DNA from: a virus
Taxonomy: Duplodnaviria > Heunggongvirae > Uroviricota > Caudoviricetes
DNA: 14,290 bases
Direction: 5' to 3' (one strand)
IMG/VR virus record: IMGVR_UViG_2778261163_000002
Location: 1 to 14,290 of that record
Position 1 is the stretch's first letter. Every line of letters begins with the position of its first letter. This document shows positions 8,298-8,645 of the stretch, in pieces. Position numbers and translations under genes: made by a program. The notes beneath the pieces are model-generated. The model made no database searches and had not been told where the DNA came from. It saw nothing but the letters and a program-made list of their open reading frames with translations.

Positions 8298-8326
8298 TTG
8301 CAACATTGATTTCGTAACGTTATTAT
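8298..8326 (+). promoter_or_regulatory. candidate sigma70 promoter for the tRNA cluster
   Basis: -35 TTGCAA (8298..8303), 17-bp spacer, -10 TATTAT (8321..8326); predicted start about 8333, just before the first tRNA at 8336. Confidence 0.5.
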
Positions 8327-8335
8327 CCTGCGCCC

Positions 8336-8411
8336 GGCCCTTTAGCTCAGTGGTGAGAGCGAGCGACTCATAATCGCCAGGTCGCTGGTTCAAATCCAGC
8401 AAGGGCCACCA
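8336..8411 (+). tRNA. tRNA with anticodon CAT, closest to tRNA-Ile2 (lysidine, ileX/ileZ-like); Met not excluded
   Basis: Cloverleaf folded by hand: acceptor GGCCCTT/AAGGGCC, D arm GCTC/GAGC, anticodon loop CTCATAA, T loop TTCAAAT, encoded CCA; close to recalled E. coli ileX. Confidence 0.8.
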
Positions 8412-8412
8412 G

Positions 8413-8489
8413 CCGCCACTAGCTCATCAGGAAAGAGCGTCAACCCTTTAAGTTGAGTGTGCGAGGTTCGAGTCCCCGATGGCGGTCCA
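8413..8489 (+). tRNA. tRNA-like gene with aberrant features, anticodon loop CCTTTAA (UUU, Lys-like); possible pseudo-tRNA
   Basis: D arm GCTC/GAGC, anticodon stem TCAAC/GTTGA, T loop TTCGAGT, encoded CCA; but C at position 33 instead of the invariant U, a mismatch in the T stem and a mismatch at acceptor pair 7-66. Confidence 0.5.
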
Positions 8490-8491
8490 GT

Positions 8492-8567
8492 GCCGACTTA
8501 GCTCAGTAGGTAGAGCAACTGACTTGTAATCAGTAGGTCACCAGTTCGATTCCGGTAGTCGGCACCA
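8492..8567 (+). tRNA. tRNA-Thr (anticodon TGT), thrU-like
   Basis: Acceptor GCCGACT/AGTCGGC, anticodon stem ACTGA/TCAGT with loop CTTGTAA, T loop TTCGATT, CCA encoded; matches recalled E. coli thrU. Confidence 0.85.
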
Positions 8568-8570
8568 TAT

Positions 8571-8645
8571 GCGGGCATCGTATAATGGCTATTACCTCAG
8601 CCTTCCAAGCTGATGATGCGGGTTCGATTCCCGCTGCCCGCTCCA
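8571..8645 (+). tRNA. tRNA-Gly (anticodon TCC), glyT-like
   Basis: Acceptor GCGGGCA/TGCCCGC, anticodon stem TCAGC/GCTGA with loop CTTCCAA, T arm GCGGG-TTCGATT-CCCGC, CCA encoded; matches recalled E. coli glyT. Confidence 0.85.

Follow-up and report, generated by a model that had tools for sequence, protein, structure and literature searches.

The window analysed here is a 14,290-nucleotide (nt) stretch of DNA (IMG/VR virus record IMGVR_UViG_2778261163_000002, positions 1 to 14,290) representing a segment of an Escherichia coli lambdoid prophage, and at least 80% of it is covered in 139 complete genomes. Four tRNA genes with the anticodons CAU, UUU, UGU and UCC, in this order and named t1 to t4 below, were called by ARAGORN on the + strand (8336-8645) between the late antiterminator gene Q and the lysis genes. 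Comparison with relatives indicates that this cassette is a variant of the ileZ-argN-argO cluster of Shiga toxin (Stx) phages, in which the argN body has been retargeted to a Lys-type UUU anticodon and argO has been swapped for copies of the host genes thrU and glyT; the identities of the individual members are nearly certain. As to function, we favor, with a little less than even confidence, a combined model in which the cassette would top up the dosage of minor host tRNAs and would also supply a UUU decoder insensitive to the tRNA-cleaving nucleases of bacterial defence systems.

Results

A compact cassette homologous to the tRNA cluster of Stx phages

An earlier reading of this DNA from its letters (the sequence-only reading) had described four tRNAs with 1-3 nt spacers in the Q-to-lysis interval and had drawn a parallel to the ileZ-argN-argO cluster of Stx phages. 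All four genes exceed 29 bits, the gathering score of the Rfam tRNA model RF00005 that served as the criterion for a canonical tRNA (Table 1), so that none of them falls below threshold in the covariance-model check which that reading had proposed. The spacers, read directly from the sequence, are 1 nt (G8412), 2 nt (GT) and 3 nt (TAT) in length, and the position of the cassette agrees both with Pfam assignments (Q at 7446-8141 and holin at 8938-9153) and with a RefSeq-annotated relative. The parallel itself turned out to be one of homology, given the same promoter, an identical ileZ and a homologue of argN.

The ileZ-argN-argO cluster is said to have been described first for phage 933W. In phage Stx2a_F349 (AP012530.1), the cluster likewise occupies the slot after Q and before the lysis genes or stx, and it shares with the window an identical promoter block, ileZ as the first member (76/76 positions) and an argN body (83%) with an A.C mismatch in the T-arm, U73 and a C1-G72 pair. 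By contrast, the second gene carries UUU and C33 in the window (loop CCUUUAA) but UCG and U33 in F349 (CUUCGAA), an argO(UCU) gene with a 13-nt spacer in F349 corresponds to copies of thrU and glyT with 2- and 3-nt spacers in the window, and stx follows the tRNA genes in F349 while a 292-nt structured spacer follows them here. The PPompW prophages (LC567822.1) and Evi (LR597642.1) possess the same promoter, ileZ and the UUU/C33 version of the argN body. However, both still have argO(UCU) as well as G3.U70 in the acceptor stem, and the Lys-like gene of PPompW has a 1-nt deletion in the D-stem and fails the tRNA model. Because PPompW and Evi carry the intermediate arrangement ileZ-Lys(UUU)-argO, a stepwise series from argN-argO through Lys-argO to Lys-Thr-Gly is suggested. 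The G3.U70 pair, a classical alanine identity element, is also found in argN of Stx2a_F349, and the corresponding pair in t2 of the window is G3-C70.

The first gene, t1, is identical to ileZ of the Stx2a phage F349 at all 76 positions but matches the host genes ileY and ileX at 70/76 and 68/76, respectively. Its CAU anticodon sits on an ileX/ileY-like rather than a Met body, and the Prokaryotic Genome Annotation Pipeline (PGAP) labels the gene tRNA-Ile. By these alignments, t1 is the Stx-phage ileZ and not a copy of a host gene, and it is expected to be an Ile2-type tRNA, predicted to read AUA after lysidine modification. The claim that three members match host tRNA genes therefore stands for the Thr and Gly genes, but not for the CAU gene.

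The cassette is common and already annotated. PGAP annotates the Ile/Lys/Thr/Gly four-gene cluster as such in 509 of 5,426 complete E. coli genomes (~9%), and a t2-like gene is present in 797 complete E. coli genomes. Among 120 IMG/VR loci, 92 possess the order Ile2-Lys-Thr-Gly, 11 Ile2-Lys-Arg(UCU) and 6 Ile2-Arg(UCG)-Arg(UCU), with the 1/2/3-nt spacing found in 89 of the 120. No description of this Ile/Lys/Thr/Gly cassette was found in the searchable literature.

The second gene places a UUU anticodon on an argN body

The most unusual member of the cluster is t2, which the sequence-only reading had left unnamed. Both ARAGORN and PGAP label it tRNA-Lys(UUU). However, t2 is 83% identical to Stx-phage argN, while its match to host lysT is limited to 48 of 79 aligned positions, and its U73 discriminator, C1-G72 acceptor end and T-stem A.C mismatch are all common to argN. 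Between argN and the population consensus of t2 there are 13 differences, with three in the anticodon loop (U33C, C35U and G36U), two each in the D-loop and the variable loop and six in stems. All six stem differences maintain or improve pairing in the t2 consensus, as in the change from G30-C40 to A30-U40. An A73 discriminator is an established identity element for lysyl-tRNA synthetase (LysRS), and U33 is universal among tRNAs. Among the features of a LysRS substrate, t2 thus has the UUU anticodon but lacks A73 and U33 (having U73 and C33 instead), and in sequence it is akin neither to host tRNA-Lys nor to that of known phages.

t2 differs from the host target of tRNA-Lys-cleaving defence nucleases

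Host tRNA-Lys(UUU) is cleaved by the PARIS defence system, and a phage tRNA-Lys rescues infection (PMC11464382). The PARIS nuclease AriB has two prime targets, Lys(UUU) and Thr(UGU), and its determinants in E. coli tRNA-Lys and thrU have been mapped to U36-A-A-U39-C40|A41 and U16; cleavage is abolished with U39A, inhibited with A41C and impaired with U16C, and the tRNA-Lys and tRNA-Thr of T5 jointly rescue T7 (PMC12409363). PARIS also restricts lambda (PMC9122126). When the mapped positions were compared (Table 2), t2 was found to differ from the host target at every determinant (G39, U40, U41 and C16), while t3 retains all the determinants of host thrU.

Table 2. Nucleotides at the mapped AriB determinants in host and phage tRNAs
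tRNA	Positions 36-41	Position 16
Host lysT	U-A-A-U-C-A	U
Host thrU (= t3)	U-A-A-U-C-A	U
T5 tRNA-Lys	U-A-A-A-C-C	C
t2	U-A-A-G-U-U	C

In this respect t2 resembles the tRNA-Lys(UUU) of T5 and SP15, which is likewise a phage-encoded UUU decoder differing from host tRNA-Lys where AriB reads, in the anticodon stem and the D-loop, although the T5 tRNA does so by A39, C41 and C16 and t2 by G39, U40, U41 and C16. The two also differ in kind. The T5 gene is a recognisable tRNA-Lys (G1-C72, A73 and U33) whose resistance to PARIS and capacity for rescue have been shown experimentally. By contrast, t2 is an Arg-tRNA body with U73 and C33 that resides in a temperate phage, and its resistance is a prediction.

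A second nuclease that cleaves host tRNA-Lys(UUU), PrrC, cuts 5' of the wobble base and thus next to position 33 (PMC1950546), and position 33 is the sole difference between the anticodon loops of t2 and host tRNA-Lys. Phage tRNA-Lys genes, including that of SP15, rescue plating on a PrrC host (PMC11555353), and a bacterial Schlafen protein cleaves tRNA-Lys(UUU) and, to a lesser extent, tRNA-Ile(CAU) (PMC13056530). A PADLOC scan of the open reading frames (ORFs) of the window for a co-resident tRNA nuclease gave generic HTH and HNH matches only. Taken together, these comparisons make a counter-defence role of t2 plausible. The specific proposal that t2 is a counter-defence tRNA, a UUU decoder escaping recognition by PARIS AriB, PrrC and Schlafen and paired with Thr(UGU), is possible but doubtful, and the same guarded weight applies to the suggestion that its conversion comprised two anticodon changes plus a fixed U33C adjoining the PrrC cut site.

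Codon usage accounts for part of the cassette

We then asked how far the codon usage of the prophage could explain the cassette, with a 42-gene sample of K-12 as the reference. The statement of the sequence-only reading that AUA, ACA and GGA are among the rarer codons holds in this sample, in which their frequencies are 2.4, 5.4 and 6.0 per thousand, respectively. Relative to it, AUA (odds ratio (OR) 2.7-3.8) and GGA (OR 1.9-2.5) are enriched throughout the prophage, while ACA is enriched in early genes (OR 2.6-3.2) but not in late genes (OR 0.7-1.5). The enrichment that had been anticipated was thus found for AUA and GGA, at two- to four-fold, but for ACA in the early genes only. AAA, with an OR of 1.2, is not significantly enriched, and AAG is enriched more than AAA. 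Because AAA is the commonest Lys codon, it is out of line with a rare-codon reading. Among the rare codons, over-use is strongest for AGA, AGG and CGG (OR 4-13), and this variant of the cluster is without the tRNAs for them.

Pure codon compensation, in which the A+T-richer phage genes simply use AUA, AAA, ACA and GGA more and defences are irrelevant, can draw on the two- to four-fold enrichment of AUA, GGA and early-gene ACA, and on the fact that the anticodons of t1 to t4 all read A-ending codons. The specificities Ile(AUA), Thr(UGU) and Gly(UCC) are also represented among the tRNAs of T4, and T4-like Thr and Gly tRNA genes were encountered at 82-83% identity. We nevertheless consider it unlikely as a full account. 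It does not explain why argN and argO were dropped despite the strong over-use of AGA, AGG and CGG, nor the values given above for AAA and for ACA in late genes, and one more gene in addition to at least five host tRNA-Lys genes, which lie in a single K-12 cluster, is a marginal change in dosage. Across 77 loci, moreover, codon use in neighbouring genes did not follow cassette type for ACA, GGA or AAA, and in phages with Thr/Gly tRNAs neither ACA nor GGA is more frequent than in those with Arg tRNAs (medians of 12.9 versus 15.6 for ACA and 12.9 versus 14.9 for GGA); a weak trend with cassette type was seen for AGA and AGG only. Codon supplementation thus fits t1 and, more loosely, t3 and t4, but accounts neither for t2 nor for the swap. 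Because AAA is not enriched and the host has those five or more tRNA-Lys genes in one cluster, neither dosage nor rarity accounts for t2.

Bearing of sequence variation on the combined model and on a possible relic

Nucleotide diversity, computed on the 30 haplotypes that could be aligned over the whole region, was 0.0009 for t1 (1 of 76 sites segregating), 0.013 for t2, 0.009 for t3, 0.004-0.006 for t4 and 0.008-0.018 for the flanking non-coding segments. ileZ is the sole member of the cassette that is demonstrably constrained.

Several observations have to be held against the combined model of dosage plus a nuclease-insensitive decoder. t2, t3 and t4 are about as variable as the non-coding flanks. 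Many t2 copies look dead, being altered at universally conserved tRNA positions (U8C, G18A and a 1-nt deletion in the D-stem). About a quarter of the copies have lesions that take them below the tRNA model; the three recurrent variants of this kind, which PGAP leaves unannotated, are U8C+C11U, the 1-nt D-stem deletion and a heavily mutated allele from enterotoxigenic E. coli (ETEC). In the window itself, a rare G66A change gives t2 a C7.A66 mismatch that lowers its tRNA score by ~7 bits (37.7 bits, where the population consensus reaches 44.4 and argN 43.0), and no 100% identical copy of this t2 was found in the 5,426 complete E. coli genomes. Because it has U73 instead of A73, C33 and an A.C mismatch in the T-stem, t2 may be poorly charged or poorly functional. 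Covariation among 15 distinct t2/argN sequences yielded one compensatory pair, and 231 of 500 shuffles gave as many or more; since the family is too shallow and does not rise above the shuffles, we claim no structural selection from it. As t3 is identical to thrU and keeps the AriB motif, it is expected to be cleaved like the host tRNA. The over-use of AGA, AGG and CGG in a variant lacking their tRNAs, and the failure of codon use to follow cassette type over the 77 loci, count on the same side. Finally, the identity and determinants of t2 were read from its sequence, while its charging and its resistance to cleavage are predictions.

Much of this would also be expected if the cassette were mostly a relic, in which only ileZ is selected, t2 has drifted as an argN pseudogene with a chance mutation of its anticodon, and thrU and glyT have been carried along and slowly decay in largely cryptic prophages. 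The flank-like diversity of t2 to t4 beside a nearly invariant ileZ, the broken t2 copies, the mismatch in the window and the insignificant covariation all agree with it, and so does t3, where stems are broken by 7 of the 18 distinct substitutions and the invariant T-loop positions C56 and G57 are among those hit. We judge this account somewhat less probable still than pure codon compensation, and other features of the same data count against it. Where the whole interval is present, the four-gene arrangement retains all its members, in 92 of 120 IMG/VR loci and nearly always (89 loci) with the spacing intact, and the cassette persists in roughly 9% of complete E. coli genomes. There is hardly any variation in the CCUUUAA loop, in which C33 and UUU are fixed in 111 IMG/VR copies of t2. 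Conversion of UCG to UUU takes two substitutions, and an unneeded third, U33C, was fixed as well with no intermediates found. The t2 consensus scores like argN (44.4 versus 43.0 bits), and the t3 and t4 consensus sequences are still identical to functional host genes.

Frequent switching of the anticodon on the argN/t2 body was also considered and rejected: scans of IMG/VR for other anticodons on this body (R35, non-U34, UUV and UCH) returned none, with only UCG or UUU present and no intermediates. Outside that collection, E. coli CE0026a (NZ_CP119003.1; 1201-1277 of the stretch compared) has a t2 body with UGU in which C33 is kept; PGAP annotates the gene as tRNA-Thr, so that the cluster becomes Ile-Thr-Thr-Gly, and this is the lone E. 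coli genome with UGU.

Host origin of t3 and t4

The sequence-only reading took the Thr(UGU) and Gly(UCC) genes to be identical to host thrU and glyT, and alignment to K-12 confirms it (76/76 for t3 and 75/75 for t4). Because the consensus of the phage copies also equals the host genes, a host origin of both sequences is very likely. The host counterpart is the thrU-tyrU-glyT-thrT-tufB operon, whose mature thrU and glyT are the ones found here. By contrast, the cassette is without tyrU, thrT, the host spacers and the host promoter, and its two genes lie 3 nt apart, compared with 209 nt (8 nt + tyrU + 116 nt) in K-12. Similarity stops exactly at the mature tRNA ends, the flanks of t3 and t4 being unrelated to the host, and alignment to the K-12 operon found no host spacer, flank or tyrU remnant around them.

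From the identity to host genes, the sequence-only reading had concluded that the pair was captured recently from this operon without tyrU and had not resided long in phages. This conclusion does not follow. A Salmonella contig has identical thrU and glyT sequences, ordered Thr-Tyr-Gly as in the host, so that the identity extends beyond one genus and 100% identity gives no date; how recently the genes were acquired cannot be inferred. (The contig concerned, AFYI01000006.1 of Salmonella enterica Infantis, is chromosomal and carries thrU-tyrU-glyT; it is misfiled in the phage collection.) A recent single-step pick-up of thrU and glyT with loss of tyrU would fit the identity of the genes and of their phage consensus to K-12, as well as their membership of one host operon. 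It would, however, have had to erase every flank, spacer and tyrU remnant. The arrangement is also widespread and has variants of its own, including a compensated U6-A66 pair of the Gly gene in 12 copies, and the Lys-argO intermediates suggest a longer history inside phages. On balance we regard a recent pick-up as quite improbable.

A frameshifting role is very improbable

In the prophage of E. coli SMS-3-5, the tail chaperone gene ends in GTT AAA AAA AAG TAG, with the T frame at -1 relative to the chaperone gene (2960-2990 of the stretch compared). The A AAA AAG within it is a dnaX-like slippery site. To our knowledge, the Stx phages with argN-argO are short-tailed and have no G/GT. An extra Lys(UUU), and perhaps Gly(UCC), could on this basis be imagined to adjust the -1 frameshift that sets the G/GT chaperone ratio, since the slippery heptamer is decoded entirely by tRNA-Lys(UUU); however, the idea stems from one observation, long-tailed phages devoid of tRNA genes generally have slippery Lys sites as well, the chaperone module occurs in 901 genomes and may merely reflect linkage in one prophage family, and Thr and Ile would have no role, so that we give the idea very little credence.

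Promoters, flanking structures and gene neighbourhood

The features of the locus are listed in Table 1. The gene order, from Pfam and an annotated relative, is DUF968, RusA, Q, the tRNAs, P21-type holin, DUF1327, lysozyme, Rz, HNH and terminase. The RefSeq-annotated prophage of E. coli SMS-3-5, 99.6% identical to the window, has the same layout, and the Q homologue is labelled 'bacteriophage antitermination protein Q' in RefSeq.

Table 1. Features of the tRNA cassette and its surroundings in the window
Feature	Position	Strand	Evidence
Q late antiterminator gene, upstream neighbour of the tRNA module	7446..8141	+	Pfam PF06323 Phage_antiter_Q, E 2e-91
Candidate late promoter pR', TTGCAA-17-TATATT	8125..8153	+	Consensus scan, 9/12; overlaps the end of Q
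Probable short pR' leader RNA and tR'-like intrinsic terminator	8157..8232	+	Stem AAACCCGCC/GGCGGGTTT, then T run
Sigma-70-type promoter of the module, TTGCAA-17-TATTAT	8298..8326	+	Consensus scan, 9/12 positions match
t1, tRNA with anticodon CAU (ileZ)	8336..8411	+	ARAGORN; Rfam 72.5 bits, E 1e-14
t2, argN-derived tRNA with anticodon UUU	8413..8489	+	ARAGORN; Rfam 37.7 bits, E 5e-5
t3, tRNA-Thr(UGU), thrU copy	8492..8567	+	ARAGORN; Rfam 73.8 bits, E 6e-15
t4, tRNA-Gly(UCC), glyT copy	8571..8645	+	ARAGORN; Rfam 64.9 bits, E 2e-12
Structured non-coding spacer, 292 nt	8646..8937	+	Three long hairpins; terminator-like site at 8853-8878
Holin gene, P21 S type, first lysis gene and downstream neighbour	8938..9153	+	PF04971, E 1e-35

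The promoter in front of t1 had been described as near-consensus. A promoter site is indeed present, but with 9 of 12 matching positions it is a fair one and the description was generous. Four promoter-like sites were counted in the region against 2.1 expected, an excess that does not reach significance on its own. Every base of the promoter block is shared by the window, Stx2a_F349, PPompW and Evi, whose sequences diverge further upstream, indicating that the promoter is part of the mobile module. A G+C-rich discriminator, CCTGCGCCC, occupies 8327-8335 between the promoter (8298-8326) and t1, and because nothing else separates the two, the leader before t1 can be a few nucleotides at most.

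The interval from Q to the tRNA genes probably represents, to judge from its position, the usual arrangement of pR', short leader and tR'; it is likewise by position that 8125-8153 was assigned as the putative pR'. A terminator scan marks the same tR'-like hairpin at 8205-8228, and 8157-8230 gives full-length but sub-threshold matches to isrK and isrJ (22.7 and 24.5 bits; E 0.015-0.04), which are small RNAs (sRNAs) of Salmonella prophages. In a permissive Rfam scan of 8100-8960, only the four tRNAs passed threshold. Downstream of t4, the spacer at 8646-8937 fills the slot taken by stxAB in Stx phages and has a minimum free energy of -99.3 kcal/mol (z -5.9 versus shuffles). In its first part, 8646-8790, 4 of 145 sites segregate among relatives, which makes this part well conserved and more so than t2 or t3. 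The spacer is probably the 3' end or a processing region of the operon. In Evi, the tRNA-to-holin interval contains two annotated ORFs and the sRNA STnc100 (119.9 bits; 2443-2629 of the Evi stretch compared).

Other features of the window include, in the early region of the same prophage, a 228-amino-acid ORF on the + strand (3842-4528) for QueH, an epoxyqueuosine reductase involved in tRNA wobble-base modification (PF02677, E 1e-65). E. coli itself uses QueG. A QueH gene, so labelled by PGAP, is present in 995 of 5,426 complete E. coli genomes, in some strains in a prophage other than the one with the tRNA cluster. A hok/sok type I toxin-antitoxin system follows at 4596-4921 (+), with sok RNA (RF01794, 111.9 bits) at 4596-4771 and the Hok/Gef ORF at 4709-4921. 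An HNH endonuclease ORF at 11315-11764 (+; PF01844, E 3e-16) lies directly 5' of the small terminase gene, a pairing common in HK97-like packaging modules.

Discussion

The gene identities, homologies, arrangement, distribution and codon statistics reported here are observations on sequences, and the combined model builds on them as follows. The module would be transcribed from its own sigma-70 promoter with a G+C-rich discriminator, so that expression could already occur in the lysogen, and during lytic growth transcription by Q-modified polymerase reading through from pR'/tR' may be added. RNase P would generate the 5' end of each tRNA in the resulting near-leaderless tetra-tRNA transcript, whose 1-3 nt trailers would be trimmed back to the encoded CCA. 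By this route the cassette could make more tRNA available for translating phage genes, and two contributions can be distinguished. t1, t3 and t4 would add gene dosage for the minor host tRNAs that read AUA, ACA and GGA, while t2 would provide a UUU decoder on a foreign body, without the features that tRNA-Lys-cleaving defence nucleases read. If t2 is charged with lysine and resists these nucleases, as the model supposes, decoding of AAA and AAG could go on once host tRNA-Lys has been destroyed.

tRNA genes of prophages are usually dismissed as rare-codon helpers. The cassette analysed here shows modular turnover, in which the promoter and ileZ were kept and the downstream tRNAs were swapped, and one member appears to have changed its amino-acid family on a foreign body. 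Should t2 not be functional, the locus would be an ordinary and already annotated variant of the Stx-phage tRNA cluster. If, on the other hand, t2 is both charged and resistant, about one in seven sequenced E. coli strains would carry a built-in bypass of PARIS- or PrrC-type immunity, which would change the efficacy of these defences against temperate phages and, in lysogens, against superinfecting phages. tRNA-based counter-defence would then reach beyond large virulent phages, of which T5 is an example, into common prophages, and t2 would represent a natural case of a tRNA gene moved to a new amino-acid family for immune evasion.

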